NCBI GenBank assembly: GCA_033764955.1
Contig: JANRIL010000011.1
Coordinates: forward strand, 16,896 to 80,895
Origin: Cyanobacteriota bacterium
GTDB taxonomy: Bacteria; Cyanobacteriota; Cyanobacteriia; Thermostichales; Thermostichaceae
DNA: 64,000 nt
Direction of reading: 5' to 3'
In this document: positions 5,609-58,200 of the stretch, in pieces
Layout of the letters: each line of letters begins with the position of its first letter
How positions within the stretch are numbered: the first letter of the stretch is position 1
Program-made: the position numbers and the translations under genes
The notes under the pieces: generated by a model
What the model saw: the letters and a program-made list of their open reading frames with translations, nothing else
The model's database searches: none
What the model was told of the DNA's origin: nothing

Positions 5609-5629
5609 GCTTGCCCCATTCTGAAGGAG

Positions 5630-8158: not shown

Positions 8159-8275
8159 GAGCTAGGTAGATTCTCCCGAATAAAGGCAGCAAAACAGAGG
8201 CAGAATTGTAAAGAAATGCAAAGAACTGCTAGGCTGACAGAGGCAACCCTATTCTGTGGTCGGATTGAGTCGGCT

Positions 8276-8689: not shown

Positions 8690-8769
8690 GGAAAAGTTTC
8701 CGGTGACGAGCAGTACCCCTGTCGCTTTGGGGAGAGCGGAATACAATAAACAAGACAATCCTGCTATGT

Positions 8770-9174: not shown

Positions 9175-9256
9175 TGGCTTGTAGATTGTTGGCTTATCTA
9201 GGCTAAGGCAGGTTGATCGATGGGTATAGTCAGCTAATCCATTTTTTGACTGAATA

Positions 9257-39849: not shown

Positions 39850-40644
39850 CTATAGCCCGGTGACACGACAGAGGATTTGCTGGCTGGCCAGAGTTTCAAA
39901 TTGGGATCGAATCGCTTTCGCAAATGTGGGGTTTTCAATCAGGATCCCTGCTTCGATGTTGCGTTGGTGGGCGGCTTCGGTGAAGTTAGCAGAGGTGATC
40001 AAGGTTCTTAATTCATCCACAACAAGACACTTGGCGTGGAGACAGGCATTCGCGGATGTAGTGGGATCCAGAGCGCGCGGATCATGAAAGACTTCCGGAA
40101 GGCGTGCACCAGGCCAGGACTGGCGGAAGTTATCCGTGAACTGCTTAATGATGGTCGAGGAAGGTGTTGGATCACTATACTTGCGTTGGATATTGATGAA
40201 AAGCCGGACTTGCAAATTGGGGATACTCTCCATGCGCTGGGCGAGGGGTTGAAAAAGTTCCCGCCCCTTACTGCCCCAGTCGATGGCAAAACTGGAGATC
40301 AGCAAGCTGTGCTGGGCTGTACGAAAGAGGTCTTTGACGACAACAGCAGTGTCGCGGCTTTCGGATCCTGGTAGCTCCGGGCCAGTCCAGACCAGATCAA
40401 ATGGCTCCCGATACAGAGACTGTTGCCCTTCCTCTGCCAGCAGGTTGAGCGAATAGGCGATGTGGTGAGGAGTCATACCCTTGTTGTGAAGGTGATTGAG
40501 TTCGCTGACGAAAAGGTGAACCAAATGGTCAGGTACCAGTCCGTTGAGGGAAATGGGTGTGCAGGGCAACAGGAGCCGTCGATGGCTCAAAGCTTCACTG
40601 AGGCTTTTAAGGGTTGGGCGGCTGAGGTGGTGAAAGGGAGACAT
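39850..40644 (-). CDS. drmC: phospholipase D-family (HKD) nuclease, DISARM DrmC-like
   Basis: HKD motif LHAKCLVVDELRTLITSANFT (about 40012-40040). The ATG overlaps the drmB stop (TAATG at 40644). Confidence 0.75.
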   Translation of the reverse strand: MSPFHHLSRPTLKSLSEALSHRRLLLPCTPISLNGLVPDHLVHLFVSELNHLHNKGMTPHHIAYSLNLLAEEGQQSLYREPFDLVWTGPELPGSESRDTAVVVKDLFRTAQHSLLISSFAIDWGSKGRELFQPLAQRMESIPNLQVRLFINIQRKYSDPTPSSTIIKQFTDNFRQSWPGARLPEVFHDPRALDPTTSANACLHAKCLVVDELRTLITSANFTEAAHQRNIEAGILIENPTFAKAIRSQFETLASQQILCRVTGL

Positions 40645-42545: not shown

Positions 42546-42547
42546 GA

Positions 42548-45500
42548 TTATTGCTCTCCATAGGGATCCCGAATCCAAACATTGACGGTGGCTTCCACGT
42601 CCCGAAGGCTACGGTGGGCCTTAAATTTGCGCCGTTCCAGATCAGTATCTGCTTGAGTGTCTAAGGCATCTACCAACAAAGGAGCCGCTAAATCGGTCTC
42701 GCTTTGATACTGCAGGCGAGTATCACGACCCAGGATCCGTTCCCAACTATCCAATAGGTCTAGCACCTGAGATCTTACTGATTGGCGGATTTGCTCCGTA
42801 TCAGTTTGGGTCAGATTTGGGTTGTGGGCTTCAGCACGTTCGGAGATGGTGGTCAGTAAAGCTTCGACGGCTTGGCGCTGGCTATTGATTTGAGAAGCTC
42901 CTAGGGGAGTTGTCATTGCTCGAATTCCAAGTCGAGCTAGAGCTACCGTTACCCCTGCCAGTCCACGATCCAGGGCACGGGGGGAGAAGGGAGTGACACT
43001 GGTGGCTTCAACAGAGCGGTAAAAACTGGTGTGCCAACTCTGAAATTGCTCGTAGTGGGAGCGATCGCGGGGGCGATGGACATTGAGTAAGGTGACGACT
43101 AATCCAGGGCGTTTGGGATCCCGTCCAACGCGGCTGGTGGCCTGAATATATTCAGAGGCATTTTTGGGTTGACCCAAGACCACCATCAGCCCCAACCGCA
43201 CGATATCCAGACCGACCGAGATCATATTGGTGGCGAGGGCAACATCCAGGCGGTCTTTCTCATAGAAGGGCATAGCCAGACGACGTTTAGTGTTGGCAAC
43301 TTTATTGGTTGGCACCCGTGAGGTTAGCTCTTCTAAGTCATCGTCGATTTTGCGATCCGCGAAAGAACCGGAGGATTCTCCATAGCGAAGGCGGTTACTA
43401 TAATTTCGCAATTGAGAACTCACTTCGTCTTCAATGATTCGACGACTTCCCCCCAATTCCCGTAGAGAGTTGAAGTATCCTAACAGCGTCATGTAGGGAT
43501 CCGCTGGGTTCTGTTGGTTACGGGATCCGCCCGCTTGCTCATATTCCTTTTGAGCAGCGGACATCAAAGCGAGATAGGCTCTCAGTAAAACCACTTTTAA
43601 GCTGCGTCCTTGAGCGGCAATGCCCACATAGAGGCGACCATCGGAGTCAAAATCTGTTTTGGCGAAAAAAGAATCGTGGCGATCTGGGCCTGGTGGTGGG
43701 AAGATTTCCACATGCTGGCGTCCAAAGAGGGCTTGGATCTGATGTGTGGCGCGGCGAACGGTAGCGGTGGAAGCAATGATCTTGGGACGTACCCTCAGCC
43801 TCTCTCCCTGAGAAGAGAGGAGTTCGGCGGTACAGAGGGCATCGATGGCGGTCTCGTAGAGTCCTACCATTGTTCCTAAGGGACCGGAGATGAGATGCAA
43901 CTCATCCTGGATGATCAAGTCTGGTGGGGGGAGATAACTGCTGAGGGGTTGTCCGGTGGGGGTGGGATCGGCTGTGCTACAGAAACCTTGCGTGGGGTCG
44001 AAGTGAGTGACCCGACCGAATAGGGCGGCGGTTTGCCCCACCCAGGGCAGTCCGGCAAATTTATCGACGGTGGCGATCATGAAGCAGGGGATCCGCCTAT
44101 AGATGGGTTCATCCACAGCTAGGATGGGGAGCGGGTTATGGCTGCGGAAATGGCAGGTACGGCTGACACAATGGACTTTGAGGTTGTTGGGTTGGTCTTC
44201 GCTGGGATGCAGTTGAAAGGAATTGGGGGTGAAGGATTCCCCACACCACGGGCAACGTTCTAGAGGAATGGGGGAGGGTTTGGCTTTGCTATCTCGCTTG
44301 TAGGCCAGGGTACGGGCACGGGCAGTGTTGTCGTCTTTGTCTTTACTGGATCCCATGCGGTTGGGGGTAGCACTTTGTCCGACCCAGAGACCAATCTCGA
44401 AAGGCCAGGATCCGAGTATTGCTTGATTGCTTTGCCGTTCTAGCTCCAAGGCGCAGATGAGGCGAGAAGCCCGTTCCAGTTGATCCAGGGTTAAAAGTCG
44501 CAAAGTGTAGCGCATCAAGACGCTCAGTCCGGCGGATTGGATCCCTGGGTGGGTAAGACGGCGCAAAATCAGGGTGAAGGCAGCTAGTCCCAGATAGGCT
44601 TCGGTTTTACCGCCACCCGTAGGGAAAAAGAGCAGATCAACTGCGCCTCGGTCGGGAGAGGTGGGATCCAGAATTCCCACCAGGTTGAGCAGGATATAGG
44701 CGATTTGGAAGGGTCGCCATTGGGGTGGAGCAAAACTTTCAGGGGGTAGGCTCTGCTCTTGACTCAGTTGTTGGCGGCGAGCACGGGCGATGACTTTGTT
44801 GGCTAGTCGAAAAGCTGTGAAGATGTTGGGGTCTGTCAGTGCATTCAGTCCAGCTTCGATGCGGTTGCAGGCGTAGTTGGCTCGATCCAACAAGTCTTGG
44901 GCAGCAGCGGTGAAACAGGGATCCAAATGGATTTGGCGTTGCGCCTGGATCCAATGGCGGTATTCGGTAACGAGGGATCCCAACATTTGTTGGATAGTGG
45001 CCGCATTAGTGGCATCCGCGAGGGCTTCCATGCCCAGTTGGAGATCCGGAATATCGGCGGGTTTGACACGGGGAACTTCGCCGGTGGGGATCCAGGCTGT
45101 TCGAATGGTGGTGCATTCACCCTGCGACAAGTCGCCGAGTGAGGCGCGAACGGTGACTTCAGCGGTGGCCGAGACGTTATGGCCCACTGCGTACTCGAAA
45201 TCGTGACGGTATTGCAGGCTGGCGACGGCTTCATCCCAATCATTGCTGTTTTCTCCACGGGGATCCCGACGCGGTTGAAATCCCTCAGAGCAGTGGAGAC
45301 TCAGTTGGGTTTGGAAACAAAAATCAGCGTCTTTGTTTTTGGTGTGACTGGGGCGATAGTTGACCACAAAACATGAGACAGAGCAAGTACCCACCGGAAA
45401 ACCCTGAGCATTAACTGGACGACAGGTGATCACCAGTTGTAGCCCACTGCCGTTGGGAATGTCGTAATGGTTGGGGGAGCCGGTTTGGATGCGGATAGGG

Positions 45501-45973
45501 ATTTCCAAGGTTGCCGATTGGGGGATCCGTTGCCAACGGTCAGGCTTGCGTTTTTTATCTGAACTGCCAGACTCGGTGTCTTCAGGGGTATCTGGGCTGG
45601 GATCCGGTTCTAAGGGCAGGTAGTCTGCCCAGGTCAGTGTGGCAGTTATGGCTTGAGTGGTTGGCTTGGTTAGGAAACTCAATCCCATTGAGGAAGGAAA
45701 CCAAGCTTTGCGGGCCGGAGCTTTATCGGAGAGTTGGCTATCTTCGCTGGTTTCACTATTGGCCAGGGATTCGAGTTCGTCATCGGCGGTGTCATCGGAG
45801 CGGATGTCGGGGGGTGCGCCGTAGGGAACCAGAAACCCTGTGAGATACCACTTAGAAGGATCCTGGGGCAAGATTTCGTGGGTGTAGTCGGGATCCTGGG
45901 GGGTGGGGCCGATGAGATCCAGATGGAGAGCTTGGATGAGCTTAGAGCGGACTTGAGCAGGTGTCGTTGACAT
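42548..45973 (-). CDS. drmA: large SF2 helicase, DISARM DrmA-like
   Basis: Walker A FFPTGGGKTEAYLG (about 44588-44632), DELH box IIQDELHLISGPLG, motif VI QATSRVGR. The ATG at 45973 was chosen; the longer ORF overlaps the PIN gene. Confidence 0.8.
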   Translation of the reverse strand: MSTTPAQVRSKLIQALHLDLIGPTPQDPDYTHEILPQDPSKWYLTGFLVPYGAPPDIRSDDTADDELESLANSETSEDSQLSDKAPARKAWFPSSMGLSFLTKPTTQAITATLTWADYLPLEPDPSPDTPEDTESGSSDKKRKPDRWQRIPQSATLEIPIRIQTGSPNHYDIPNGSGLQLVITCRPVNAQGFPVGTCSVSCFVVNYRPSHTKNKDADFCFQTQLSLHCSEGFQPRRDPRGENSNDWDEAVASLQYRHDFEYAVGHNVSATAEVTVRASLGDLSQGECTTIRTAWIPTGEVPRVKPADIPDLQLGMEALADATNAATIQQMLGSLVTEYRHWIQAQRQIHLDPCFTAAAQDLLDRANYACNRIEAGLNALTDPNIFTAFRLANKVIARARRQQLSQEQSLPPESFAPPQWRPFQIAYILLNLVGILDPTSPDRGAVDLLFFPTGGGKTEAYLGLAAFTLILRRLTHPGIQSAGLSVLMRYTLRLLTLDQLERASRLICALELERQSNQAILGSWPFEIGLWVGQSATPNRMGSSKDKDDNTARARTLAYKRDSKAKPSPIPLERCPWCGESFTPNSFQLHPSEDQPNNLKVHCVSRTCHFRSHNPLPILAVDEPIYRRIPCFMIATVDKFAGLPWVGQTAALFGRVTHFDPTQGFCSTADPTPTGQPLSSYLPPPDLIIQDELHLISGPLGTMVGLYETAIDALCTAELLSSQGERLRVRPKIIASTATVRRATHQIQALFGRQHVEIFPPPGPDRHDSFFAKTDFDSDGRLYVGIAAQGRSLKVVLLRAYLALMSAAQKEYEQAGGSRNQQNPADPYMTLLGYFNSLRELGGSRRIIEDEVSSQLRNYSNRLRYGESSGSFADRKIDDDLEELTSRVPTNKVANTKRRLAMPFYEKDRLDVALATNMISVGLDIVRLGLMVVLGQPKNASEYIQATSRVGRDPKRPGLVVTLLNVHRPRDRSHYEQFQSWHTSFYRSVEATSVTPFSPRALDRGLAGVTVALARLGIRAMTTPLGASQINSQRQAVEALLTTISERAEAHNPNLTQTDTEQIRQSVRSQVLDLLDSWERILGRDTRLQYQSETDLAAPLLVDALDTQADTDLERRKFKAHRSLRDVEATVNVWIRDPYGEQ

Positions 45974-45981
45974 GGAACCCC

Positions 45982-46554
45982 CTAAATCTCGTAGCAAATC
46001 TGGCGGAGCATAGAAACGGATATCGGCAGTCCCTGTCTCAGCAGAATTTCCAGATGTTCTTCCACAGTCACGGGTGGATTGCATAACCGCTTTCTTACTG
46101 TTTCTACCACTTGAGCGATTTTGAATGGCTTCAAGTCTATGACAGAAGCAATAAACTCATCAGGGTGCTGTACCTCAATGTCGTAGGGAGCTAATGCCTG
46201 CTGTGGAAAGTCTTTGAGGTTGAAGGTGACAATCACATCCACTCCCCCTTGGATGGCAGCAGCAAGGACATGGCGATCCTCGGGATCCGGTAACTGTAGA
46301 GCAGGAATCAAGGATTCATAGCCTGTAATTAGACAGTCCCGAACATGACTATTCATTAAGTCCTTGGTGCGGGTGAGCTGCTCTAGTGTCAGGTCAGGGC
46401 GATCTTTGAGGACGTTCCGGATCCACTCCTCATGAATTTGATTTGTCCATTTGGCTCGGAAGAGATCAGTAAGGGCTAGCTGCATAAGAAGATCCCGCAG
46501 GGGAGCGGGATAAAGCACACAGGCATCATAGAGAGCTGTGTAGTTGGATGACAT
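45982..46554 (-). CDS. PIN-domain toxin (paired with an HTH antitoxin)
   Basis: ALYDACVLYPAPLRDLLMQLALTDLFRAKWTNQIHEEW..., a later acidic residue (DPEDRHVLAAAI) and FNLKDF are typical of PIN toxins that pair with excisionase-type HTH antitoxins. ATG at 46554. Confidence 0.7.
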   Translation of the reverse strand: MSSNYTALYDACVLYPAPLRDLLMQLALTDLFRAKWTNQIHEEWIRNVLKDRPDLTLEQLTRTKDLMNSHVRDCLITGYESLIPALQLPDPEDRHVLAAAIQGGVDVIVTFNLKDFPQQALAPYDIEVQHPDEFIASVIDLKPFKIAQVVETVRKRLCNPPVTVEEHLEILLRQGLPISVSMLRQICYEI

Positions 46555-46555
46555 G

Positions 46556-47011
46556 CTAGTAGCCCATACCCAGTTCTTGGGCTTGGAGAACCAGATCATT
46601 GAGGGCTTGGGATCTGGCTGCGTCTGTTTTTTGCTTGTAAGCCATGAGGTCTTGGAAACAGATGCGGCGGTGTTTGCCGACCGTTCGATAGGGAATCTCG
46701 CCGGACTCTAGGAGTTTGATCAGGAAGGGACGGGAGACGTTGAGGATATCGGCGGATTCTTGGGTGGTGAGTTCGGCATGAATGGGAATGAGGGTGACGG
46801 CGTTGCCCTGTGCCATCTGAGCCAGGATATCGACCAAAAGGTGAAGGGCACTGGCAGGAATCTCGACGGTTTCTTCACTGCCATCCTCTTCAACGACTTT
46901 GAGTTGACGGGTAGCTCCACCCAGATGAGCCGACAGGATCCGGCTGCTGACTTGAGAGAGCTTAATTTCAGACTCCGTTGGTAGTTGGAGCCTTGGGCTG
47001 GAGATTGCCAT
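46556..47011 (-). CDS. excisionase-family helix-turn-helix antitoxin
   Basis: HTH_17-like segment LTTQESADILNVSRPFLIKLLESGEIPYRTVGKHRRICFQDLMAYK. The stop lies 1 nt before the PIN start. Confidence 0.7.
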   Translation of the reverse strand: MAISSPRLQLPTESEIKLSQVSSRILSAHLGGATRQLKVVEEDGSEETVEIPASALHLLVDILAQMAQGNAVTLIPIHAELTTQESADILNVSRPFLIKLLESGEIPYRTVGKHRRICFQDLMAYKQKTDAARSQALNDLVLQAQELGMGY

Positions 47012-47106: not shown

Positions 47107-47259
47107 CTCCCTCAGGATCTGAGTGTTCAGGACAGCTTGGCCATTGCGGATGAGTTGATCCTGAGTTTCGTTTACGGTCTGGCGTTTTTTAGGATCAATG
47201 CTGTCATAAGCATCAATAAGGATATTGGTATCGAACTGCTTCGCAACGCTGACGCGAAC
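47107..47259 (-). pseudogene. 5' remnant of a PIN-domain (VapC-like) toxin gene
   Basis: The frame reads GFVRVSVAKQFDTNILIDAYDSIDPKKRQTVNETQDQLIRNGQAVLNTQILRE, with a PIN N-terminal FDTN motif. There is no in-frame start codon after the upstream stop, and similarity ends near 47105. Confidence 0.55.
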
Positions 47260-47265
47260 AAAACC

Positions 47266-47499
47266 TTAGTGCTGGTGTCGGTCATAGAGATCTTCTCGTT
47301 TCCAGTCACGACCTGAGGTTGTGCGACGGTTCAAGCTTTGGATAAACGCTTTCTGCTTTTCCCACACCTCGATCCTGGTTCGCTGATCAATGGGTTCAAC
47401 CAGGGTGAGTTCCACCGTTTGCCCCTCAAGGCTAGGATCTAGCTTTTCCGAAAGGATCAGGTTGCCGTCACGATAGGTTGCGGTCAGAATCTGACTCAT
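47266..47499 (-). CDS. AF2212/DUF104-like antitoxin
   Basis: MSQILTATYRDGNLILSEKLDPSLEGQTVELTLVE is the typical DUF104 antitoxin N-terminus. It is followed by the PIN remnant. Confidence 0.6.
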   Translation of the reverse strand: MSQILTATYRDGNLILSEKLDPSLEGQTVELTLVEPIDQRTRIEVWEKQKAFIQSLNRRTTSGRDWKREDLYDRHQH

Positions 47500-47529: not shown

Positions 47530-48702
47530 CTAGTCTAAGCCAGGGATCCCAGGGGTCTCGGCCTGCTTGGATTTACGAGAGGATCCTTTGGGCTTGGCTT
47601 GGGATCCCCCGATGATCTCCTCTTGATAGCGTTGCTGGTTGAGTTTGAGCAGGCGAGCAAGGACTTCATCGTGGACTTCTTCGGGCCAGCGATAGCGCCA
47701 GGGTTTCTTGCGTTTGCTGGTTCCTTCGTCGTCTTCGTCTTCGTAGTCGAGCAGGAATTCGCAGTCGGTGGGGATGTCGTGCCAACCGTAGGCATCGAGG
47801 ACGGCACGATCCATTTGGGCATGGAGTTCGCGTTGTTTGAGGATATCGGGGTTGGTTTCGTCGGGGTCGTGGAAGCGGTTGTAGGTGGCGGTGAGTCCCT
47901 CGTTGTGGCGGATCATGAGATCGGCGCGGAATTCGTAGTAGGTTTTGCCTGCGGCTTCGAGGATGGGGTTAGTTTCCCAATCAAAAGGGAAGGGGAAGGT
48001 TTCAAAGCAGTCAGAAGGCGTGTAGCGGAGGTCATCTTTCATAGATGAACCCAAGAATCGCGCCCAAATTTCATGAATACGAGATTGAAGAATACAGAAA
48101 GTAGAGTAAGTTCCAAGTGAGACAACAATAAGTTGTTCAGAATAAACCATCCCGCTTGGTAGAAATGTAAATGCTCCAGTTTGACTAACACGAGGAATAA
48201 CTAACACCCGATCGCACTGGGCGATCGCTTTTTGAAGGTCTAGAGCAGGGCGAGCAAACATCCACCATCTTGCAGGATTTACAATTGAGCCTTGTGTTAA
48301 CCTTTTAGGCTTAACCTTCTCTTCCACGATTGCCATCAAGTCCGGATACTTCTGCATCTCATCTTCCTTCATGTCACCAAAATTAATCACATAGCGATGA
48401 TGAGCATGAGTGGGGCTACTATTCACTTCCTCACCGCCAATGTAAGGAAAAATCCGTTCTGCATTGCGCGGATCTTTTTCGATTAAGCGGTGCATTTCTG
48501 CAATAGGGGTCGCATCGGAATTAGAGTCATCAAACGTAAACCCCATCCCTAACACATAGCTACCTACGAAACTCTTGTTAGCATTTGCCAATAACACAGC
48601 AGGGTCATCATTTCCACCTTTTGCAAACAAAAACGCCGTAATTTTTTCAACAGGTTTGCCATCCAGTAAAATCGGAATATCAGGCGGAAAAGATTGCAGC
48701 AT
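47530..48702 (-). CDS. drmMI: C-terminal (target-recognition-like) fragment of the DISARM DrmMI-type methyltransferase
   Basis: ILLDGKPVEKITAFLF...ANANKSFVGSYVLGMGFTFDD...DPRNAERIFPYIGGEEVN...HHRYVINF continues the MmeI/Eco57I-like architecture where the 933-aa ORF stops. Confidence 0.65.
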   Translation of the reverse strand: MLQSFPPDIPILLDGKPVEKITAFLFAKGGNDDPAVLLANANKSFVGSYVLGMGFTFDDSNSDATPIAEMHRLIEKDPRNAERIFPYIGGEEVNSSPTHAHHRYVINFGDMKEDEMQKYPDLMAIVEEKVKPKRLTQGSIVNPARWWMFARPALDLQKAIAQCDRVLVIPRVSQTGAFTFLPSGMVYSEQLIVVSLGTYSTFCILQSRIHEIWARFLGSSMKDDLRYTPSDCFETFPFPFDWETNPILEAAGKTYYEFRADLMIRHNEGLTATYNRFHDPDETNPDILKQRELHAQMDRAVLDAYGWHDIPTDCEFLLDYEDEDDEGTSKRKKPWRYRWPEEVHDEVLARLLKLNQQRYQEEIIGGSQAKPKGSSRKSKQAETPGIPGLD

Positions 48703-48737
48703 AATCCATGCTTTAGAGTGACAAAGTTTTTAGTGCT

Positions 48738-49154
48738 CTACGGCAATAACAAGTTTTGAAATGGTTGATTGTTTTTCCAGCGATACGTGTTGAAGTCTCG
48801 CTGATCGACTGAGAAAATGCGTCCGTGTCCTAAATGCTCAGCCAAAATCACTAGAGAAGCATCTGCCAAATCCATTGGTAAACTGGCATATTGCTTCATT
48901 AGTTTCGCAATTCTTGAACCAGATTCAGATGGTAAATCAAAAACATTAAAAAGTTTTTGGTGGTAATTGTTGATGAATGCGATTTGTGCCTGTACCCCTT
49001 TACGAGTAAGTAACAGATAACAAGTCTCAGTCATAACAGACCACGTTGTAATGAGAGATTCATCATAGGTTTGAAAAGCTTGATTGGCTGCTTCGTGATA
49101 CCTATCTTTTGCATCAGCGAGTGCCAACCAAAAACCCGTATCAACGATGATCAT
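48738..49154 (-). CDS. vapC: PIN-domain toxin VapC
   Basis: MIIVDTGFWLAL...TTWSVMTETCYLL...DLADASLVILAE...IFSVDQRDF, with the four acidic PIN positions recognisable. Confidence 0.8.
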   Translation of the reverse strand: MIIVDTGFWLALADAKDRYHEAANQAFQTYDESLITTWSVMTETCYLLLTRKGVQAQIAFINNYHQKLFNVFDLPSESGSRIAKLMKQYASLPMDLADASLVILAEHLGHGRIFSVDQRDFNTYRWKNNQPFQNLLLP

Positions 49155-49398
49155 ATTTTGTATTCCATCCCTCTGAAAGCACTTGTTTATAGTCTGTAGA
49201 AAGATTTTCTTCTACAGAGACACAACCAATAAATCCGCTCTCTTTGAATTTCTGATAGGAACTGTCCTCAGCGTTTGCTTTCGATTGATCTACCTGCGGA
49301 TATCGCTTTTTCAGGATTTCAATAAAATCCATCAGCAATAGTTGAGCCTCTTCAGGCAAGGCTTGAATATCTTGTTGCATCTGTTCCAGGCTAGACAT
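49141..49398 (-). CDS. VapB-type antitoxin (DUF2281-like)
   Basis: MSSLEQMQQDIQALPEEAQLLLMDFIEILKKRY is a typical small antitoxin. It overlaps vapC by 14 nt, and its ATG shares one base with the stop of the truncated methyltransferase ORF (TAATG at 49396-49400). Confidence 0.65.
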   Translation of the reverse strand: MSSLEQMQQDIQALPEEAQLLLMDFIEILKKRYPQVDQSKANAEDSSYQKFKESGFIGCVSVEENLSTDYKQVLSEGWNTKYDHR

Positions 49399-52199
49399 TA
49401 TGCAGCACCTCCAACCATCGTTTTTTCGCGGGCAACTGTCCCGATCTTCATGATATGCACTAAACTCACCACCACTGCCGCTAATCCCGGCCATTTGTAA
49501 CGGCGGGTGGCGTTGTAAATCATGCCGCCATTGTTGCAAATAAACCGGAGGCCGGTGCTGCGAGTGTCGCCCTGAGCGATGGTGTTGGTCGCAATTAAAC
49601 CAACCGTGCCGCCCCAACGCAGCAATGTAAACGATCGCCTAAAGAAGTGCGCCACCAGATCCGCATTGCCGTGAGATTCGGGATGCACAATTTTCAACCA
49701 CTCCAGATACCCCTCAGGATGGGCGTTAATCGTCGTATTTTTCCCCGCAAACGGTGGATTGCCCACGATCGCATCAAACCCCGAATTTTCCCGCTCAAAC
49801 ACTTCAGGAAACTCTAATTCCCAGTTAAACGGCTGTACTGCCTTGGTTCCCGTTGTTAGCTTGGCAACAACTGATTGAATTTCAGATTCATCCACCAATC
49901 CCTTCTCATAGCCAATCAATTTACCGCCAAATTCCTCACGATATTTCTGCCGTTGTTTGGCATTGTCACCCGCAAAGAAAGAGGCGACTGCGACTTTTGC
50001 TGTTAATCGAGCCGGTTCTAAGGCGCGATCGACATCTTGCAATAACGCCTGTTTTGTCTCCGCATCCCCATCTGATCGCGTATCCGACGTTTGAATCTGC
50101 TGTCGATACGCCAGTGCCTTCGTTGCCGACTGCTTCATTAACAACTTGTGGTCTTCAAAAAACGTTGGCTCATAAGCTGCACTTGCCCCAAAGCTACCAA
50201 TCTCTGTTCTGGTCAGCCCCACCAGCGAATCACCGCACTTGAGCGCATGATCCAAAAACGTAAACGGCAAATCTTTTGCCAGCGTCACCAACCACAGCGA
50301 CAATCGCGCCAGGTTCACCGCAAACGGGTTCTTATCCACCCCATACAAACACCGCTGCGCCACCAATCGCCGCGCCACCACCACATCCTCCACCGTCTCC
50401 GGCAGATCCGCTGGCTTGCCGTGATAGTTCCAGGCTTCCACCAACTTGTCTGCCAACTGCCGACAGGCTTCCACCAAAAACGCCGCAGAACCCATCGCCA
50501 GATCGCACACCTTCAGATCCAACAACTGCTCTGGTGTAGGATGCTCGCCTAAATTCTTCAGCACAGGCTCCAGCGTCTTCTCCACGATCGGCTGCGTCAA
50601 CTTCCGAGGCGTGTAGTGAGACCCCGATCGCCGCCGTTCCTCTCCCGGTTGCAAAAACAGACTGCCTGCCGCTAACAAATTAGGAGTTCTGGACGAAACC
50701 CGACGACCAATGGCAGCAGCAATGTCTTCTGCCGTTTTTGCCTCCTTCAACTCCTTCAAGGCTGCCCCTTTCAGTTCACACTCTGCCGCTTTGAGAATGT
50801 TGACGCGATCGGCTGGCTTTGCCGCCAGGATCTTGTCTACATCCACCACCACATCTTTCGGACGAACGGCGATCGATCGTCCGTGGGCAATCTCCACCTC
50901 ATAGCCCATGATCGCCTCATAAACCGAGCCAATCTGCTCAACATCAAGGGCACGATAGGATAATCGCTCTCCATCCAACATCAGCAGCTTATCCAGCATT
51001 CGGTAAACCACCCCATCTGAGACGCGAGGGGCTTCAATTCTGCCGAAGGTGGCAAAGTGAGAAGCGATCGGGCGACCTTCTAAAAACGGGTACTCATCTG
51101 GGTCAAACAACTGCCCATGCCGCGCGGGAAGGTACTCCTCCGTCGGGCCACCTCCGTCATACACCAGACGAAACAGACTCAACAGCGTTGCCCATGCCCC
51201 ATACCGCTGATCCATCGTGTCTGGGTAGTTGCCTGCATCCTCTCGCAACTTCTCATACAGCCCCGACACCGCGTAGTTGCGCTGATAAACCTCATCATCC
51301 GGCATCAGCCCTTCATCTTCGGCATAGAGCAGGAACACCAGCCGCATCAGCGTGGTGATCAGCCCCCCATAGATATGCTGCGGGTCAGTTTCAGCTAACT
51401 CTCTGAGGATCTTTCCATTTACTGTTGCATCCGCCGCCTGAAACCCTTTCAGTAATTCCCACAGGGCATCCAAAACCTGTTCCGCCAGTTTGGTGGAGAC
51501 CTCGGCTTGATAGTGGCGGCTATCTTCCAGCAGTTGGGGCAACCGTTGCGCTTCTGGCACGTTAAAGAGTCGTTCGGATCCGAGTAGCAGATCCAAGGCC
51601 CCCAAAATCAGACGCCCCGACACCTCGGTCATGGCCTGCACTGGGAACGTCACATGACCGGATGATTCCCCATTGGGGGCAACCACCAAGCGGATCGCGG
51701 TGCCGTTAAACAGGATCCCTTGATAGACCTTGGTTTCTCGCAACAGCCGCTCAAACTTGGCTTGAGAACTGGCTTTCCATCCGTGAGCACTTGCAAAGGG
51801 ATCCTCATCGTCAAAGGGTTGCCCTGTAGGCAGAGTTTGGATGAGCAGGATCCAGGTATCCGCTTGCCCATCCGTCCCTTTCACGGCATAGGTGGGACTG
51901 AGAACCTCGCCATAATTGGGCAAAGCTACCGTTAATTCCTCAGGGGGATCCTTTAGGTCATCAGGCAGCCACCCCAGTACAGTTTGAGTGAAACCAGGAA
52001 AATCAGGGATCCAAGCACAGGGATCCCCTCGCAGCTCAGGCGTTGTGACCGCCAGGAGCTTTTCTTGGAGATCCACCAGTTTGCCTCGATCAATAATGGC
52101 CTGCGCTTTGATCAGAGCAGGGGGAGAGACCACCAGACCGACAGGTTGTAGTAGTCCTAGCCATTCTTTGTGGCGGTAGGTGTCGAGATCTGTGCTCAT
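49398..52199 (-). CDS. drmMI: N6-adenine DNA methyltransferase, DISARM DrmMI-like, N-terminal/catalytic fragment
   Basis: SAM motif VCDLAMGSAAFLVEA and catalytic IVGNPPFAGKNT (about 49735-49776). Then GLIATNTIAQGDTRSTGL...YKWPGLAAVVVSLVHI, after which the ORF ends in 13-14 unrelated residues. Confidence 0.8.
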   Translation of the reverse strand: MSTDLDTYRHKEWLGLLQPVGLVVSPPALIKAQAIIDRGKLVDLQEKLLAVTTPELRGDPCAWIPDFPGFTQTVLGWLPDDLKDPPEELTVALPNYGEVLSPTYAVKGTDGQADTWILLIQTLPTGQPFDDEDPFASAHGWKASSQAKFERLLRETKVYQGILFNGTAIRLVVAPNGESSGHVTFPVQAMTEVSGRLILGALDLLLGSERLFNVPEAQRLPQLLEDSRHYQAEVSTKLAEQVLDALWELLKGFQAADATVNGKILRELAETDPQHIYGGLITTLMRLVFLLYAEDEGLMPDDEVYQRNYAVSGLYEKLREDAGNYPDTMDQRYGAWATLLSLFRLVYDGGGPTEEYLPARHGQLFDPDEYPFLEGRPIASHFATFGRIEAPRVSDGVVYRMLDKLLMLDGERLSYRALDVEQIGSVYEAIMGYEVEIAHGRSIAVRPKDVVVDVDKILAAKPADRVNILKAAECELKGAALKELKEAKTAEDIAAAIGRRVSSRTPNLLAAGSLFLQPGEERRRSGSHYTPRKLTQPIVEKTLEPVLKNLGEHPTPEQLLDLKVCDLAMGSAAFLVEACRQLADKLVEAWNYHGKPADLPETVEDVVVARRLVAQRCLYGVDKNPFAVNLARLSLWLVTLAKDLPFTFLDHALKCGDSLVGLTRTEIGSFGASAAYEPTFFEDHKLLMKQSATKALAYRQQIQTSDTRSDGDAETKQALLQDVDRALEPARLTAKVAVASFFAGDNAKQRQKYREEFGGKLIGYEKGLVDESEIQSVVAKLTTGTKAVQPFNWELEFPEVFERENSGFDAIVGNPPFAGKNTTINAHPEGYLEWLKIVHPESHGNADLVAHFFRRSFTLLRWGGTVGLIATNTIAQGDTRSTGLRFICNNGGMIYNATRRYKWPGLAAVVVSLVHIMKIGTVAREKTMVGGAA

Positions 52200-52211: not shown

Positions 52212-55200
52212 CTAAAGTTGACCCGCTAAAAGGACAGTGTAATGCCAACCCTGGGTTTTAATTTCAGGTGCTAGTTGTTTATAATATTTCTCTGGAGTTA
52301 TTTCCACACTTACGGGATAGCGATAGATATTACTAACTCGAATCTGTGATTGATCATTGCCATATAAATCTGCTTGCAAGTACCCGATTATTCGTTGTCC
52401 ATGGAGTACTTGTCTTCTATTTTTGATGACCACAGAATCGTTAATTCTTACATGAGTTCTCAAATAATCTTGGAGTCCATCATTGTATTGCTCCTTAAAA
52501 CCAGGCCAGGAAATAAAAACTTCATCAGGGGATCCTTCTAGCCTTAGTACTTGCTGATTTATCCCTTGGAATGCTTGTTTCTTTGACCATGCCTTTTCCC
52601 GTGGCCCCCAGTCAAAGTAAAGCTCATTTTTAGCACGAGTCACGGCAACATAATAAAGTCGAGCCTCTTCGGCTGCTGAGTCTAGAATATTATTTCCATG
52701 ACCCTCAAAATTATCTCCATCATCCTTATCCATAAAGGGAAAAGTTGTGATCGAACTAGGAACGTAAACGACATCAAATTCTAGACCCTTGACTTTGTGA
52801 ATGGTGGAAATGGTGATCCCAGGATCCCGATTCGATAGAGATTGAGATAGTCGGGTAAAATCACTAGTTTTTAAATCCTGAATCATCGCCAGATGTTGGC
52901 TTAAAGTGCTATAACTTTCATATTCGACGAACGTAAGTGACCTCAGTTGCTCAATAGACTCAATTCCGTAATTTACATCGGCAAGAACAAGCTGCCGGTA
53001 TTGCTCAAGTAACTCATCCCAAATTGAAGATGTAAGTCCGGGATCAGGCTCTTGAGAAAGATAGGTTTGGCACAGATCTATCCATTCTCCAATCTCTCGT
53101 ACTTGAGCTAGTTTAAGATTATTATTGCTTTGGATCCGAAGTGGTTTAACATTACTATTTTGCAATAAATTATAGAATTGAAAAACTTCGCTATTAGTCC
53201 TGCATAATACAGCCATTGATTTAGGGTGCTCAATGTTCACACAATTATAGGCCATAACTTCTTGGGCCAAATTGACCAGTCGTGGACACTTAGGATCCAC
53301 ATCTTCAATTATCTGATGATCTATGATTCCATTTTCATCGCGATAGGCTTGAAGCGTGATATTGGCTTTAACTCGATTAGGAATTAGGTTGGTAGCAAGC
53401 ACTTGGGATCGCTGAATAATATCGAAAGTGGAGCGATAATTTACCAGCAGGTTAATCACATCACTTTGATAGTCAATCCGGAAATCTTGTAAGTATTGAT
53501 TAGCATGAAGGCGGTCGCCGCGCTTGCGAGTCCAAAGCAAAATATCTTGGTCATCATCCCCAATAACAACAACACCTGCCCCGCTACCTTGGTAAAGAGC
53601 CAAGATTACTTTATAGAAATCCTCGTTCATATCTTGGAACTCATCAACTAAGATGGCTTTATAATTCGCTGAGACCCTATTTCTAAGAGCTTCATCTGTC
53701 TGCATTGCTAGAGCAAAATTATGAAGAGTTACTTTGAGATCATTATTCCTATCCCTTACATCACTCAAACTCTTGAGCGCAAAACTATGAAAGGTATAAA
53801 CCTGCATCCGGCGAACAAAGGATCCATAGCCTAGTTGTTTGAAGAGATCCCGTACTCGCTTTTTGATTTCGTACACAACAGCACGATTAAAAGCCAAGAC
53901 TAGAATTTCATGAGGCTGAAGTCCTTGACGGTAAATCAAGTCAGCACATCGCATCATCAGGACATGAGTTTTGCCTGCTCCAGGGCCTGCATTGACTAAC
54001 AGATTTTGGTTATAGGGATGCTCACATACGTCCTTTTGTTGAGGATTAAGGCACTCTTTTGCCTGGTGAATAGCCTCTTCTCTCACTCTGCCTTGGATTT
54101 GTTTCAGTGCTGGATTGACTTCGAGAATATCATCATCGATTTCCCCAATAGTAGAATCAATCACTTTCTCTAGAGCAGTTAAAGAATCTGCTTCAAAATA
54201 GCGATCTATATAACCTGCCCGCAAGGAATCCGGTAGATAAGCATAAAGTTCCATAGCTTGGGCTCGCCGCAAAGCCATATTGTTAAGATCGTCGATAGTC
54301 TTTATCATTTTCTGATCTAACGGATGCATTTGCTCACGATCAGTTTCGATTTGATCTGGCTTGAGAATTTCTAGGATATAGCTAAAGGTTGTAATCTCAT
54401 TTGAAGCAGAGTAGATTCCTAGATTACTTATAAGCTTGATTGCAGATTGCAAGGGTTTTATCTTGACAGCTTTAGGGCAACACTTTAATAATTCATCAAG
54501 AGTCAAGTCTATTTCGTTTTGATTGGCAGGTTCTTTGTTGAGTATGGTGAGTAAAGCTTGGCTAATTTCAAGAATTAGCTTCGCTTTCTCAATCCACTTT
54601 GGAGTAAGATGATATGAGTAAAAGATAGTTTGATTGTCACTAATATTCTCATCAAAGCGAATCAAGATATCTCGCAATAATTTAACGACACTCCTGACAA
54701 CTCTTTTTTGTGCGTCCTTAATCTTCCTTTCAGACCAAGTTGCTGTCATAGATTCTTGTTGAAGATCTGCAGAAAGATCAGAAATTAGATCGTCCCAGTA
54801 AAGTCTTGGTTGCTTAGCTTTTTGATTAACAATATTCAGGATTTTCCTTAGCCACTTGAACTGCTGTTCTTGCATATCGTGATAGTGACCCTTTTTGAAC
54901 TGGATCTTGCGATTAATCTTTAGTGCCCCAACCTGACTTAGCTTCAAGATTCCTGTCCATACTTGATCCATTTGCCTCAACTGAGAGTGCCTCCACAAGT
55001 TATCAAGACTAAGATCTACCGTGGTCCACTTGTCGTTTGTGGTTCTTTCATCATTGGATTCAGTTCCTAGATCTATTGGTTCCCTTGAACTAGAAGTTAT
55101 AGTTGTTTGTATTCCCGTTAGTTGGCTTATAGGCAAAGATGTAGATCGTTGATCAGCCAATGACTGCCCGAAAAAGAAGCCTAAAACTCCTTTGGCAACA

Positions 55201-58200
55201 TTCATGATTACTTGAGAGATGGAAGAGGCTAAAGATCTAGAGTCTTTCTGATTTTCTGATGGATCGATTTTTGTTAAAGCTGTGGAGAACTCTGGAATTG
55301 AAATATCTGAATTGGCAAAATCAATCTCAGGTACAGGAACTCCACTGATAGTAAAACTGTTTGATTCAAACAAGCTTAGTAAAGCTCTTGCAACTGTAGC
55401 AGTCAGATCAGATCCCTGACTATATTGTTTCAAATTATCGGCTTTTAATTCTACTTTGAGTAATCCTGGCAAATAAGCACAAATTGTTAATCGCTCTGAA
55501 TACTCTAACCAAAATAAATATCGCCTCAGAGCATCTTCTTTAAAACTTCCAAATTCATCTATAGGGATAATAGCAATAGGATTCTCACCTTGAATTAAGG
55601 GTCTGGCTTCTGCAACAATCTCTATCCAAAGTTCTCGCAACTGAGGCACGGTGATCCGGTTTAGTTGAATCAAGGATTGTGTAGTGTCAAAGTCACCAGG
55701 TGCAAATAGTAGCTTTCCTTGAACATACTCTAAGCTAGCAGCTTCTCGACTTTCCTTGTTACGACCAATTCTACCGACTTCTTGCAAGTAATCTTCTAAA
55801 TAATTTGGCGGTGACAAATGCAAGCACCAATGAATATGAGCGATATCCATACCCATGCCAAAGGCTTTAGTACAAACTAGTACTTTTATTTCGTGATCTA
55901 GAAAACTATGATAGAGTTCGATCCGCAGATCGGCAGATAATCCGGCATGGAAATAATCTACTTGACAATCTATTTCTTCTCTTTCATTTATTAACTTAAC
56001 TAGTTCTTCTGCATGCCGCCTACGCGTAACGAAAATAATGACACTGCTACGTGAGAGATCTGCAGATCGAATTATATTCTCGACGTAACCCAAACGAGGA
56101 GATAGGGATTCAGATTGAGCAGAAAAAGTGACTTCAACATTTTCAGCAGTTAGTTGAATGAAAGGCTGAATAGGATGTCGTATTTTCTCTGGGCGAAGGA
56201 CGTAGGTATTTTGATTTGCATCGATCTCCTGCTCTAGATCCTTACGAACAATCTCTGTGATAGTTGCAGAAAATAGCAAGACCGGAATCAACTCTCCATT
56301 AGGTTGATGTCGATAAAAATGTCGAATCTCTCGCGTAGCGAATAAATAGTCAGGTCGAAATTCAAAACCCCACTGACTTACACAATGCGCCTCATCAATG
56401 ACGATGTATTCAAAACCTTGATCAAACTCAAATCGTCGCTGAATAGCCTCTCGAAAACGTGGGATTCGAAACCGTTCTGGAGCGACAAATAAAAGTTTGA
56501 TGCGGTTATCAATAATCCCTTGATAAACTTCTGATGTCTGCCAGGGATCGCGATCTCCACTGAGATAATCAACTGATTGAATAAACCCTTTGCGCCACAA
56601 GGTATTCACTTGATCCGCCATCAAAGCTCGTAACGGTGAGATTACTAGGGTGAGGCGTTGGGTAAACGCACCGCGTAGTAGAGCTGGAATATGAAACAGT
56701 ACGGACTTACCTTCACCCGTTGGGAGCCTGACTAGTACATCTTGGGTACGGGTAATGATTGCCTCGATGGCTGGCTTTTGGGTTCCTTCTCGAAAGTCCA
56801 GGTAGCCCCAATGAGCTTGCAAAAACTGTCGATAGCTTTCGTAATCTGTCGGGGGATCCCGTCGCTCAATATCGCCTAGTATATTTCGTAAAGTTTCTAA
56901 CAGTCGCTCCGGTTGCTTGAGTTTTGCCAGAGGAATCTCCCGGATAAGAATTCTTTTTTCTTGCCCCAGGGAGAGGTGGCTGAGACGGCTATCCAAAATT
57001 ATTGGCACACATGAGGGATCCTTAAACTGAAAACGAGTCCATAGCCAGGGGCCCAAGTGACGCTCAATCGCGATAGTCATTGCTGAAGCAGAAATCTGCA
57101 CTGGTAAAAGGGTAGTTCTATCCCCTCCTCCCTGACGCTCACTCTGAAGTTCTTCATCCTCGTCTAGATTTGCCCCATCTCCCTCATATCCGTCTTCGGC
57201 TTCATTCAGTATTAAATCCGGATCATTCTCTTGCTGAGCTTGGTCGAGTAGCCACCACTCCTCTAATGGCAACGCTTCAATCAGGGGTAACACCTTGCAC
57301 CCTAAAGTGGCAGCCGCATCCAAAAACCGATCCACCTGGTCTATAGCCGATATCACTAACGGTTTGCTCCGCCGCCGTACTTTTTCAAAATGTCGTAGTA
57401 TCGACCCTCCCGATCGTTCAATTGTCAGTCCCAAAGTCGCTATTGCTTGTTCAATGGCTCTTGCTTCCCCCGCCTCATCCACCAGTAATAACAGCATCAC
57501 ATCGGGATCCGTCTGATAATGCACCGACAAAACCCGCAGCAGCAAATCATCCCAATAGCGAAGCCGATTACCAGAACCCGGTGATAGTCCTTCCCGAATT
57601 CCACCGGGATCCTTCCAGCGGGGCAATATCACCTCCCACTGACTGCTGTAGTTATGAGGTGTGACATCTTCAGACTGCTGGATCTTTTCAAATAAATCCG
57701 CCAGATCGGCTCCCAGCAGCCGCAAAGCCCAGGGAAACTGCCGCTCTTGTCGACCCCGCAGTGGGTCATACTCTAGCCAACAGTGGAGTGGTTTCTTATC
57801 TACTCCCCACTGGAATAAATCAACTCCTTCTGGAATGTTGAACAGCATCCGCCCTGCCAAATCAGACGTTTGGGAAATCAGGGATCCTAGTCCCTGCCTA
57901 ACTTTTTCCGTCGATAAGGGTTCTAGGTGTATCCTCTCAAAGATTCCTTCCTCTGGATACAGAGGGATAATGTCTTCTGGGATTGGCAGATTTATTGGCA
58001 AATCATGATAGGCTATTGCCCCTATAACTCCATCTCCTGATTCTCCAGCAGTGATTGGATTGTCTATAGCTTCGTAGAGTAACGAATCTAGCCCTTCCCT
58101 TAACCACATTGGAATCATCCGGAGCACCACTTGAACCTGTTGACGCTCTGCCTGACGCACCACTACTGCCACGGCTCGTAGATCCCGTCGCTCAGGATGA

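Follow-up and report, generated by a model that had tools for sequence, protein, structure and literature searches.

The methylase gene drmMI of a cyanobacterial class 1 DISARM operon is divided in two at the junction between its catalytic fold and its TRD, and a toxin-antitoxin (TA) pair lies between the halves. The operon is located in the window, by which we mean the whole 64,000-nucleotide stretch of DNA that was analysed. The split layout is found in many cyanobacteria, where it is kept by purifying selection; DrmMI is therefore probably a functional enzyme of two subunits rather than the product of a damaged gene. In the reading that we regard as likely, split DrmMI is an M + S enzyme resembling BcgI and the Type I systems, and the permissive linker at which it is divided offers the operon a third place for cargo. 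No published description of a split drmMI with TA genes between its halves was found in the literature.

The assignment of the operon to class 1 DISARM, with the gene order drmD-drmMI-drmA-drmB-drmC on the minus strand, is supported by strong PADLOC matches for DrmD, DrmA, DrmB, and DrmC (Table 1). DrmD matches PDLC02621 across its entire length (E=0) and contains the Pfam domains SNF2-rel_dom and Helicase_C, while Helicase_C, MZB, and PLDc_2 are found in the drmA/drmB/drmC region (39850..46084). An earlier reading made from the sequence only had described drmA, drmB, and drmC as intact-looking, in agreement with these matches. The junction between drmD and drmMI holds a 2493-aa helicase ORF, which is cargo outside canonical DISARM; its GC3 is 0.37 compared with ~0.55 for the DISARM genes, and no homologue occupies this slot among 85 related loci. 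The junction between drmMI and drmA holds a 77-aa ORF without any Pfam match, whose N-terminus is similar to antitoxins paired with PIN toxins in loci L005, L002, and L067. The HTH_17/excisionase-like and PIN_3 genes (45982..47011) make up a second TA-like pair of cargo genes in this slot. A short PIN-like remnant is also seen after the 77-aa ORF, at ~47172-47260.

Table 1. Genes of the DISARM operon and their cargo, with positions in the window.
Feature	Position	Strand	Description
drmD	59752..62973	-	SNF2-type helicase, 1073 aa; first gene of the operon
2493-aa helicase ORF, low GC	52212..59693	-	DEAD/RecQ-like (DpdF-like) module and UvrD (GajB-like) module
drmMI N half	49398..52199	-	933 aa; N-terminal helical region and complete gamma-class N6-adenine methylase fold
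VapB-like antitoxin gene	49141..49398	-	85 aa; weak sub-cut-off profile matches
VapC-type PIN toxin gene	48738..49154	-	138 aa; Pfam PIN
drmMI C half	47530..48702	-	390 aa; short beta-hairpin, TRD, C-terminal helical region
Antitoxin-like ORF	47266..47499	-	77 aa; cargo of the slot between drmMI and drmA
HTH_17/excisionase-like gene	46556-47011	-	NCBIfam 'excise' domain
PIN_3 gene	45982-46599	-	RSP_2648-family PIN (NCBIfam)
drmA	42548-46084	-	PADLOC DrmA E=1.9e-292
drmB	40644-42578	-	PADLOC DrmB E=7e-72
drmC	39850-40644	-	PADLOC DrmC E=9e-112

The N half of drmMI carries motif I (DLAMGSAAF, 50478-50504) and the NPPF motif (49749-49760), and matches the Pfam families Eco57I, MmeI_Mtase, N6_Mtase, and, weakly, MmeI_N. 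The C half matches MmeI_TRD. On the PADLOC DrmMI profile (PDLC02643, 1347 positions), the N piece covers 7-988 and the C piece 988-1335. Since the two pieces meet at position 988, nothing has been lost at the break, and combined they give a very strong match along the full profile. In an alignment to MmeI, using published domain limits (PMC4833311) that start the annotated TRD at residue 621, the break lies ~35 residues ahead of that start. An AlphaFold model of a homologue, which is only moderate overall and has a local pLDDT of 60-87 at the break, puts the break in a short loop that immediately follows the final long beta-strand of the methylase fold. For the C half by itself, the model is poor (pLDDT 54).

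The N half runs through KWPGLAAVVVSLVHI (49452-49481), with AAVVVSLVHI (49452-49481) as its last beta-strand, and past VHI carries a tail of 17 residues (MKIGTVAREKTMVGGAA, 49401-49451). The sequence-only reading had counted about 14 unrelated residues here. The tail is longer than this and not wholly unrelated to other sequences, as P0122 and P0132 have near-identical tails and the start of the in-frame extended linkers of other genomes is similar to it. The C half begins at an ATG (48702) with a new head of 11 residues (48670-48702), and homology to the full-length enzymes restarts at 48669 with LLDGKPVEKITAFLF (48625-48669), followed by GMGFTFDD. Full-length homologues extend beyond the end of the 933-aa ORF, so that a refutation considered in the sequence-only reading fails. 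Their reading frame passes through a linker of 9 codons, with the pattern VVSVxH[IV]-FKGxYxxxK-LDGxxVxxI[ST]AFLF, and on into what is the 390-aa ORF in the window. The two ORFs, the first with its N6-adenine methyltransferase core and the second resuming the pattern, hold as first described, together with their coordinates and junctions, and the division does lie at a domain boundary.

At the N-half edge of the gap stands the sequence TAATG (49396-49400), as had been noted, in which the stop codon of the N half (TAA, 49398-49400) and the start codon of the antitoxin gene (ATG, 49396-49398) share one base. The antitoxin and PIN ORFs overlap by 14 nt, and the PIN stop and the ATG of the C half are 35 nt apart, so that the pair occupies the gap without filling it exactly. 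The antitoxin matches DUF2281 (E=9e-4) and the NCBIfam model TA_VapB (E=6.5e-4), both weakly and below cut-off. L001 and L017 have orthologues with 72-74% identity at this position, and L081 and L084 have an 85-aa gene there. The toxin matches Pfam PIN with 36.5 bits (cut-off 23.6 bits) and, weakly, the VapC family TIGR00028, and its sequence contains the acidic residues D5, E43, D95/D98, and D116. No terminator-like site was found on the coding strand of the cassette. As in other type II VapBC modules, the gene for a small antitoxin overlaps that for a PIN toxin, and the family is widely scattered across unrelated contexts. The pair differs from the usual VapBC in that its start codon is fused to the stop of a methylase fragment and in that no mobility signature is recognisable.

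That the cassette is an insertion lesion particular to this genome, as the sequence-only reading implied, is not supported. Among 80 species-level loci, 55 have the uninterrupted native gene with its 9-codon linker, 12 have an in-frame linker extended by 24-381 nt, nine are split at this linker, and four are unscorable; the split form thus accounts for 9/76 scorable loci. Co-oriented small-gene cargo of 0.65-2.5 kb is present in eight of the nine, all cyanobacterial or cyanobacteria-like, and its identity varies from locus to locus. Recognisable TA or defence families are found in seven of these eight (DUF2281-like/PIN, DUF433/DUF5615, RHH/PIN, PemK, MNT, XisI, and Uma2), and the cargo of L013 gave no significant Pfam match. 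Three further split loci with cargo come from other assemblies: L083 (121 aa and PemK), L084 (two PIN pairs and DUF433), and L085 (DUF2281 and PIN, inside a complete DISARM operon). Of the best 120 clusters of N-half homologues, 35 stop no more than 30 residues from VVSxxHI, 59 have the full length, and seven have extended linkers, giving 35 split out of 101 classifiable clusters. A rough neighbor-joining tree of these homologues implies at least 15 changes between the split and unsplit forms. The junction between drmMI and drmA exceeds 500 nt in 45/63 loci and holds the same cargo families as the gap in drmMI.

Between split loci, the N halves have dN/dS of 0.07-0.23 and the C halves of 0.11-0.27, which may in part reflect selection older than independent splits, except in the comparisons among the window, L001, and L017. 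In all three of these, the same vapBC lies at an identical site, so that they diverged after the split; the window differs from the other two with dS of 0.8-1.2 and dN/dS of 0.10-0.21. Both halves are thus under purifying selection within this group as well, which speaks against the earlier suggestion that the methylase may be dead. In L002, L005, L007, L013, L083, and L085, the TRD start overlaps the last cargo stop or lies within ~5 nt of it. The TRD gene of the window is without such start-stop coupling, being preceded by the 35-nt spacer, and no clear Shine-Dalgarno sequence was found before it.

The split could nevertheless have inactivated DrmMI, leaving pseudogene fragments or halves with another role in a DISARM that is decaying or acts without its own adenine methylation. 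The sequence-only reading had wondered how self-targeting would then be avoided. This worry is weak because, in the only class 1 DISARM tested (Serratia), no autoimmunity followed when drmMI and drmMII were deleted (bioRxiv 10.1101/2021.12.28.474362), so that an inactive methylase would be tolerated. Decay does happen: L081 and L082 retain vapBC and the TRD gene alone, and L053 has a degenerate 'methylase tail - antitoxin - PIN - truncated TRD' remnant beside an intact full-length gene. L022 has a large internal deletion. On the other hand, both ORFs are open in 12/12 split loci examined, dN/dS stays at 0.1-0.2 at dS ~1 also after the shared vapBC insertion, the catalytic motifs are kept in the window's N half, start-stop coupling is preserved, and about one third of the close N-half clusters have the split form. 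L067 even has two full TRD paralogues, 74% identical, with near-identical ends and a divergent TRD core, an arrangement that is sensible only if the TRD subunit acts in trans. Inactivation is considered quite improbable. An alternative that we consider unlikely makes the nested TA pair a functional part of the system, either as a PrrC-like guard whose toxin would be freed once phage proteins disable the M-S complex, or as an addiction module that would lock in a newly gained TRD gene, TA and TRD forming a mobile specificity cassette. A precedent is offered by prrC, which is embedded in the hsd locus of EcoPrrI (PMC12707154). A toxin gene usually lies directly 5' of the TRD gene, the second TRD gene of L067, between drmA and drmB, has its own antitoxin/PIN pair, the vapBC and TRD of L081 have 90-95% nucleotide identity to the window block, and the remnant unit of L053 appears to have moved as a block. 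However, the cargo is heterogeneous (PIN, PemK, DUF5615, MNT, Uma2, XisI) and belongs to the families found in ordinary intergenic slots, the two TA pairs adjoining the L067 TRD genes are mutually unrelated, and VapC homologues of 54-71% identity lie outside DISARM in 80/80 more distant metagenomic loci (0/80 in a drmMI split). GC3 is low both in vapBC and in the first 215 TRD codons, but this is not a specific sign, as the same TRD dip is seen in unsplit genes. The pair is most likely generic, selfish or hitchhiking VapB-like/PIN cargo and probably not a dedicated methylase partner; at most, it may stabilise the island against deletion or add an abortive-infection layer. TA cassettes stabilise islands and superintegrons.

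Developmentally excised elements and split inteins are well known in cyanobacteria, and the interruption might be removed before expression, so that a single polypeptide is restored, by DNA excision as in the heterocyst nifD, fdxN, and hupL elements, by split-intein trans-splicing, or by translational bypass. A XisI-family gene does lie inside the L007 gap, but XisI homologues are also ordinary cargo elsewhere in such operons. No recombinase or flanking direct repeats were found in the window cassette, junction sequences vary between loci, the gaps hold complete conserved genes, and the N tails (3-24 residues) and C heads (~6-11) are far below the length of intein halves, so that removal is very improbable. 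Judged by the source name of P0001, the window derives from a MAG, and the cassette might have been wrongly joined into drmMI by assembly or binning. Misassembly, raised in the sequence-only reading as well, is effectively refuted because the same split with cargo recurs on independent contigs of at least 11 other assemblies, among them isolate genomes as well as contigs of several megabases. In the window, moreover, the reading frames and start-stop overlaps are exact.

Of the two outcomes that had been envisaged, conversion into a two-subunit enzyme is thus favoured over inactivation by the recurrence, purifying selection, and coupling. Combined, the halves have the domain order of class 1 DISARM DrmMI (e.g. 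Serratia sp. SCBI, motif ACACAG) and of the MmeI/PglX family: a helical N-terminus, the methylase with motif I and NPPF, a TRD, and C-terminal helices. The described members are single polypeptides of ~1300 aa, whereas in the window and many cyanobacteria the protein is cut after the methylase fold, with genes in between. BcgI-type systems pair a gamma-methylase RM subunit with a separate S subunit; the fused form is represented by AloI/CjeI (PMC3874165). As in BcgI (RM + S) and Type I (HsdM + HsdS) systems, specificity would come from a separately encoded TRD subunit, and the two TRD genes of L067 recall Type I loci, in which several alternative S genes typically accompany one M gene. The S-like piece of the window has one TRD and MmeI-type C-terminal helices instead of two TRDs with dimerising spacers, and is a recent fission product of a single-chain enzyme, with clear homology to the C-terminal end of full-length DrmMI. 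The N-terminal methylase domain of PglX is stable alone, with a hinge to the TRD region, and its C-terminal domain could not be expressed alone (PMC11341690), which suggests that a free TRD subunit may need co-folding.

Accessory genes are known from other R-M-like operons, such as prrC in the EcoPrrI hsd locus and brxU in a BREX island (PMC12707154), where independent toxin or defence genes likewise lie co-oriented inside a methylation-based defence operon. These sit between genes, whereas the cargo of the window sits inside what is elsewhere one gene, its family changes from genome to genome, and no sign of a physical or regulatory link between toxin and methylase was seen. In the proposed two-subunit enzyme, the catalytic (M) subunit would stop directly behind the final strand of its methylase fold, the S-like subunit would bring the TRD and the C-terminal helical region, and the two would associate without a covalent bond to form an active N6-adenine methylase with sequence specificity. 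The linker of nine codons that joins the modules would tolerate interruption. In cyanobacteria, it may thereby have become a third cargo slot, besides the drmD-drmMI and drmMI-drmA junctions, in which small co-oriented genes, mostly TA pairs, would settle and be expressed within the operon.

The minus strand of the window carries one co-oriented gene array at 39850-62973, whose genes have been named by PADLOC and Pfam profiles. The array represents class 1 DISARM, with three places where the operon holds additional genes. The two pieces of drmMI lie in this operon with drmD, drmA, drmB (DUF1998/MZB), and drmC (PLD); all four neighbours match PADLOC, and the Pfam families MZB and PLDc_2 are also found. 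The order drmD/drmMI/drmA/drmB/drmC is common to most of 80 related loci.

Genes of the DISARM array in the window, with the profile source where given
Feature	Position	Strand	Length	Source
DrmD	59752-62973	-	1073 aa	PADLOC/Pfam
Low-GC double helicase ORF	52212-59693	-	2493 aa	
DrmMI piece with methylase (N half)	49398-52199	-	933 aa	
Antitoxin-like ORF	49141-49398	-	85 aa	
PIN ORF	48738-49154	-	138 aa	
DrmMI piece with TRD (C half)	47530-48702	-	390 aa	
Antitoxin-like ORF	47266-47499	-	77 aa	
HTH_17 gene	46556-47011	-	151 aa	
PIN_3 gene	45982-46599	-	205 aa	
DrmA	42548-46084	-	1178 aa	
DrmB	40644-42578	-	644 aa	
DrmC	39850-40644	-	264 aa	

The N half matches the PADLOC DrmMI profiles PDLC02638 (E = 0) and PDLC02643 (E = 8e-283, positions 7-988), and the C half matches PDLC02640 (E = 1.7e-170) and PDLC02643 (E = 7e-123, positions 988-1335). 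Together, the two pieces leave no part of the 1347-position PDLC02643 profile missing and none duplicated. The gamma-class N6-adenine methylase motifs I (SAM binding, DLAMGSAAF, residues 566-574) and IV (NPPF, 814-817) are present in the N half, which also matches N6_Mtase, Eco57I, and MmeI_Mtase in Pfam. Its last methylase strand, AAVVVSLVHI (residues 907-916), is followed by 17 residues and a TAA stop (49398-49400). DrmMI is typified by a methylase and TRD in a single chain; in the window, the TRD is a separate ORF 696 nt downstream. The stop and the antitoxin start codon ATG have one base in common (TAATG), there is a 14-nt overlap between the antitoxin and toxin genes, and the TRD ORF begins 35 nt past the toxin stop. 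The ORFs, the TAATG, and the overlaps confirm the split described in the sequence-only reading, with an antitoxin and a PIN gene filling the gap. Full-length relatives do not end where the 933-aa ORF ends: their sequence runs from ...VVSVxH[IV] through nine in-frame codons (FKGxYxxxK), the native linker, into LDGxxVxxI[ST]AFLF... of the C half. Misassembly is ruled out by this anatomy and by recurrence on independent contigs.

The domains of MmeI have been assigned as methylase (301-620), TRD (621-825), and C-terminal helices (826-919) (PMC4833311). Aligning a full-length homologue to MmeI places the break at about residue 585-590, ~35 residues ahead of the annotated TRD start. In the AlphaFold model of the homologous protein P0159 (mean pLDDT 68, pTM 0.45), the break falls in the loop 953-958, after the long strands 926-937 and 943-952 and before a small hairpin at 959-966, with local pLDDT values of 60-87. 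By the MmeI alignment and this model, which is only moderate, "domain boundary" is fair wording for the break. PglX likewise has a hinge at the junction between its methylase and TRD regions (PMC11341690). AlphaFold run on the C half alone gave an unusable model (pLDDT 54).

A species-level scan with one genome per species yielded 80 loci. The native nine-codon linker is kept in 55 of them, 12 have an in-frame extended linker (gap of 51-408 nt, that is, 24-381 nt added), nine are split at the linker, and four are not scorable. Cyanobacteria and cyanobacteria-like MAGs account for eight of the nine splits, each with 0.65-2.5 kb of co-oriented small genes between the halves. The ninth (L078, Chloroflexaceae) resembles an extended linker disrupted by a frameshift. 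Three further split loci (L083-L085) came from protein matches.

Cargo between the halves of split drmMI in related loci
Locus	Cargo
L001, L017	DUF2281-like/PIN pair, same as window
L002	Two Uma2 genes, antitoxins, one PIN gene
L003	DUF433 + DUF5615
L005	DUF2281 + PIN
L007	XisI, MNT-type nucleotidyltransferase, RHH + PIN, DUF433
L013	Three small ORFs, no significant Pfam match
L067	PemK and DUF2281 + PIN, before the first TRD gene
L083 (protein match)	121 aa + PemK
L084 (protein match)	Two PIN pairs + DUF433
L085 (protein match)	DUF2281 + PIN in a complete DISARM operon; PemK pair ahead of drmA

Among the best 120 N-half clusters, 35 stop within 30 residues of the last methylase strand, 59 are full length, seven have extended linkers, and 19 are unclassifiable. 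The tails of the split N halves include FKG, FKQ, IKV, and MKVA directly before the stop, as well as WKQGDRTGG... and MKIGTVAREKT.... On a rough NJ tree of N halves, the split and unsplit forms are interleaved, and Fitch parsimony needs at least 15 changes over 96 tips, some of which are probably allele replacements by recombination. A search with the C half is not a usable measure of prevalence: its best 120 matches all lack a full-length gene (~109 are TRD-only). This proportion is treated as biased and is not taken as a frequency, full-length genes being the majority among relatives in both the genome scan and the N-half search. A C-half phylogeny was likewise uninformative as a test of monophyly, the TRD being a mosaic, and the N-half tree was used instead.

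Several related loci hold partial or altered forms of the arrangement. In L053 (11284-12473), an intact full-length drmMI is directly followed by a remnant made up of the last ~40 methylase codons, genes for an antitoxin and a PIN protein, and a TRD gene of 110 aa with head and tail only; the remnant has the appearance of a fossil left when one allele, split or unsplit, replaced the other. The extended linkers of seven loci (L010, L015, L023, L030, L031, L033, L041) and four proteins (P0193, P0199, P0218, P0220) run ~14-30 residues beyond the native nine, for example QKVGCVATKN...THP..PILDG and MKVGGVTTKTRNQPKVAWQVPQPILDG. They resemble the window N tail (MKIGTVAREKT...) joined to the window C head (...FPPDIPILLDG) and may either have been left behind when a cassette was lost or be the state that precedes insertion. 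In L081 and L082 (1-2700), vapBC and the TRD gene alone are kept, 90-95% identical in nucleotides to the window block, with a Mu-transposase fragment upstream; there, the N half was not detected and drmA-C are absent. The block is a decayed copy of the window arrangement. A DUF559 (Vsr-like endonuclease) domain is inserted in several split N halves (P0125, P0144, P0167, P0184, P0190, P0194, P0201, and L085:2555-6415), which are 1087-1286 aa long.

Neither ORF is broken in any split locus. In pairwise comparisons, dN/dS lies between 0.07 and 0.23 among N halves and between 0.11 and 0.27 among C halves. The window, L001, and L017 diverged after the split, since they have the same vapBC at the same site, and their comparisons give dS of 0.77-1.21 with dN/dS of 0.10-0.21. 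In most loci, the N half and the first cargo gene, like the last cargo gene and the TRD gene, are joined by start-stop overlap or separated by at most 5 nt; in the window, start-stop coupling is seen at the first junction only. No terminator-like site was found within the cassette on the coding strand. L067 has two TRD genes, 74% identical, with nearly identical ends and a divergent TRD core, which is the pattern that alternative specificity subunits would give. The second lies with its own antitoxin/PIN pair between drmA and drmB. The same locus, from a Pseudanabaenales MAG (4161-9310, 9323-11224), encodes a DrmA of 1480 aa whose N-terminal domain is an AbiEii nucleotidyltransferase; the gene ahead of it is AbiEi-like.

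The sequence-only reading had allowed that the methylase might be dead; the intact ORFs, low dN/dS, coupling, and two TRD genes of L067 suggest that it is not. A precedent for an unfused arrangement like the proposed M + S DrmMI is BcgI, with separate RM and S subunits and the fused counterparts AloI and CjeI (PMC3874165). Conservation and selection of both halves, and the alternative TRD genes of L067, lend indirect support to a BcgI/Type I-style mode of working, in which a separate TRD subunit would set the methylation specificity. Even with a dead methylase, the question of how self-targeting is avoided would not arise: deletion of drmMI and drmMII in the Serratia class 1 DISARM causes no autoimmunity, and methylation of host sites there is only partial (bioRxiv 10.1101/2021.12.28.474362). 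If the two halves assemble, the apparent paradox of intact DISARM effectors beside a "broken" methylase also falls away.

The window toxin matches Pfam PIN at 36.5 bits (cut-off 23.6) and has the PIN acidic residues D5, E43, D95/D98, and D116, while its match to an NCBIfam VapC subfamily is below that family's own cut-off. The 85-aa antitoxin-like ORF upstream matches VapB families below threshold, with DUF2281 at E = 9e-4 (20 bits vs 26.5) and TA_VapB at E = 6.5e-4 (20 vs 60). The pair is kept in L001 and L017, and pairs of 85-aa and 138-aa PIN genes occupy the same position in L081 and L084. Ordinary junctions of these operons hold Uma2, XisI/XisH, DUF433/DUF5615, PIN, PIN_3, GmrSD, MNT/HepT, and IS200 genes; the drmMI/drmA junction is longer than 500 nt in 45 of 63 loci, and the drmD/drmMI junction is longer than 300 nt in 18 of 59. 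Since like cargo fills these junctions, the intragenic linker behaves as a third cargo slot.

What the pair does in this slot can be read in more than one way. A specific association of this vapC family with DISARM is rejected: none of 80 metagenomic loci with homologues 54-71% identical to the window VapC has the gene in a drmMI split. On the evidence of these loci, the VapC family is not tied to DISARM, and the cargo families vary between split loci; for both reasons, we favour a TA pair that is generic cargo, hitchhiking or stabilising, and not a dedicated guard. A role as guard or "addictive specificity cassette" is improbable, though three remnants or variants count for it, namely the second TRD gene of L067 with its own TA pair, the vapBC + TRD block of L081, and the L053 remnant. 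Such a role would take one of two forms. Either the drmMI linker is a targeted or strongly preferred landing site, with TA and TRD moving as exchangeable "specificity plus addiction" cassettes, or the nested toxins guard the M-S complex, as PrrC does EcoPrrI; we doubt that one of the two applies. If true, either would mean that TA cassettes insert at a defined site and have a defined role within a defence enzyme. The long-standing question of TA mobility would also become open to direct test, using the 15 or more events, apparently independent, at a single site of 9-30 codons.

Other ways of making or repairing the split have also been considered. The window vapB and vapC and the initial 215 codons of the TRD have GC3 of 0.35-0.37 against 0.58-0.66 in the flanks. 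Co-transfer of vapBC and TRD on this composition is rejected because the TRD is equally GC3-poor in unsplit genes; the mean deficit over the first 200 TRD codons is -0.13 in unsplit (n = 67) against -0.15 in split genes (n = 9). Across drmMI of L001-L080, the first ~200 codons of the TRD region lie ~0.13-0.15 below the flanks of the same gene, split and unsplit alike, which is consistent with frequent horizontal exchange of the TRD. The two junctions coincide exactly with the arms of an imperfect inverted repeat of 11 nt (49397-49407 and 48695-48705). It is missing from the orthologous junctions of L001 and L017, and ~38 comparable pairs are present in 2.3 kb; it is treated as chance and not as the terminal repeat of a mobile cassette. 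A developmentally excised element is rejected as well, since the cassette ORFs are antitoxin-like and PIN only, with no recombinase of the nifD/fdxN/hupL type, and no direct repeats flank the window cassette. A split intein has an N-intein of ~100 aa after the N-extein and a C-intein of ~35 aa before the C-extein. It is rejected on the N tails of 17 aa in the window and 3-24 aa elsewhere and the C head of 11 aa.

The other additions to the window operon lie at its ordinary junctions. The 2493-aa ORF fills the drmD/drmMI slot. Two modules are recognised in it, one DEAD/Helicase_C (DpdF/RecQ-like; residues ~950-1320) and one UvrD/GajB-like (~1880-2360); no annotation covers the ~950 residues at its N-terminus or ~550 residues in its middle. 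Its GC3 is 0.37 vs ~0.55 for the operon, and no counterpart is present in this slot in 85 related loci. The 77-aa antitoxin-like gene (MSQILTATYRDGNLIL...) belongs by its N-terminus to the family of the PIN-paired antitoxins of L005, L002, and L067. Only a short remnant of a PIN N-terminus (...FDTNILIDAYD) follows it 3', and the region (47172-47499) looks like a decayed TA pair. Immediately upstream of drmA (45982-47011, minus strand) are an excisionase-like HTH_17 gene and a PIN_3 gene of the RSP_2648 family, the latter overlapping the annotated drmA start by ~100 nt. The true drmA start is probably further downstream, because DrmA homologues align only from residue ~30-40 of the window protein.

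DISARM, VapBC, M + S methylases, and cargo in defence operons are all known. A literature search found no description of a split DrmMI/MmeI-family methylase, nor of TA genes nested in one. Two features appear to be new: this single-chain methylase has been split repeatedly at one and the same linker, and that linker serves as a cargo slot. TA and small defence genes would then colonise a permissive intragenic linker as well as the between-gene junctions of a defence operon. Annotation pipelines that expect a DrmMI of ~1300 aa would miscall split loci as truncated or incomplete. If the halves assemble, the split loci would represent natural cases in which a single-chain methylase of the MmeI/PglX type has come apart, repeatedly in evolution, into M + S-like subunits, and the linker would be marked as a place to split such enzymes or swap the TRD, which is useful in specificity engineering. 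Assembly would also support the interconversion of Type I, IIB, IIG, and BREX/DISARM methylases by fusion and fission.
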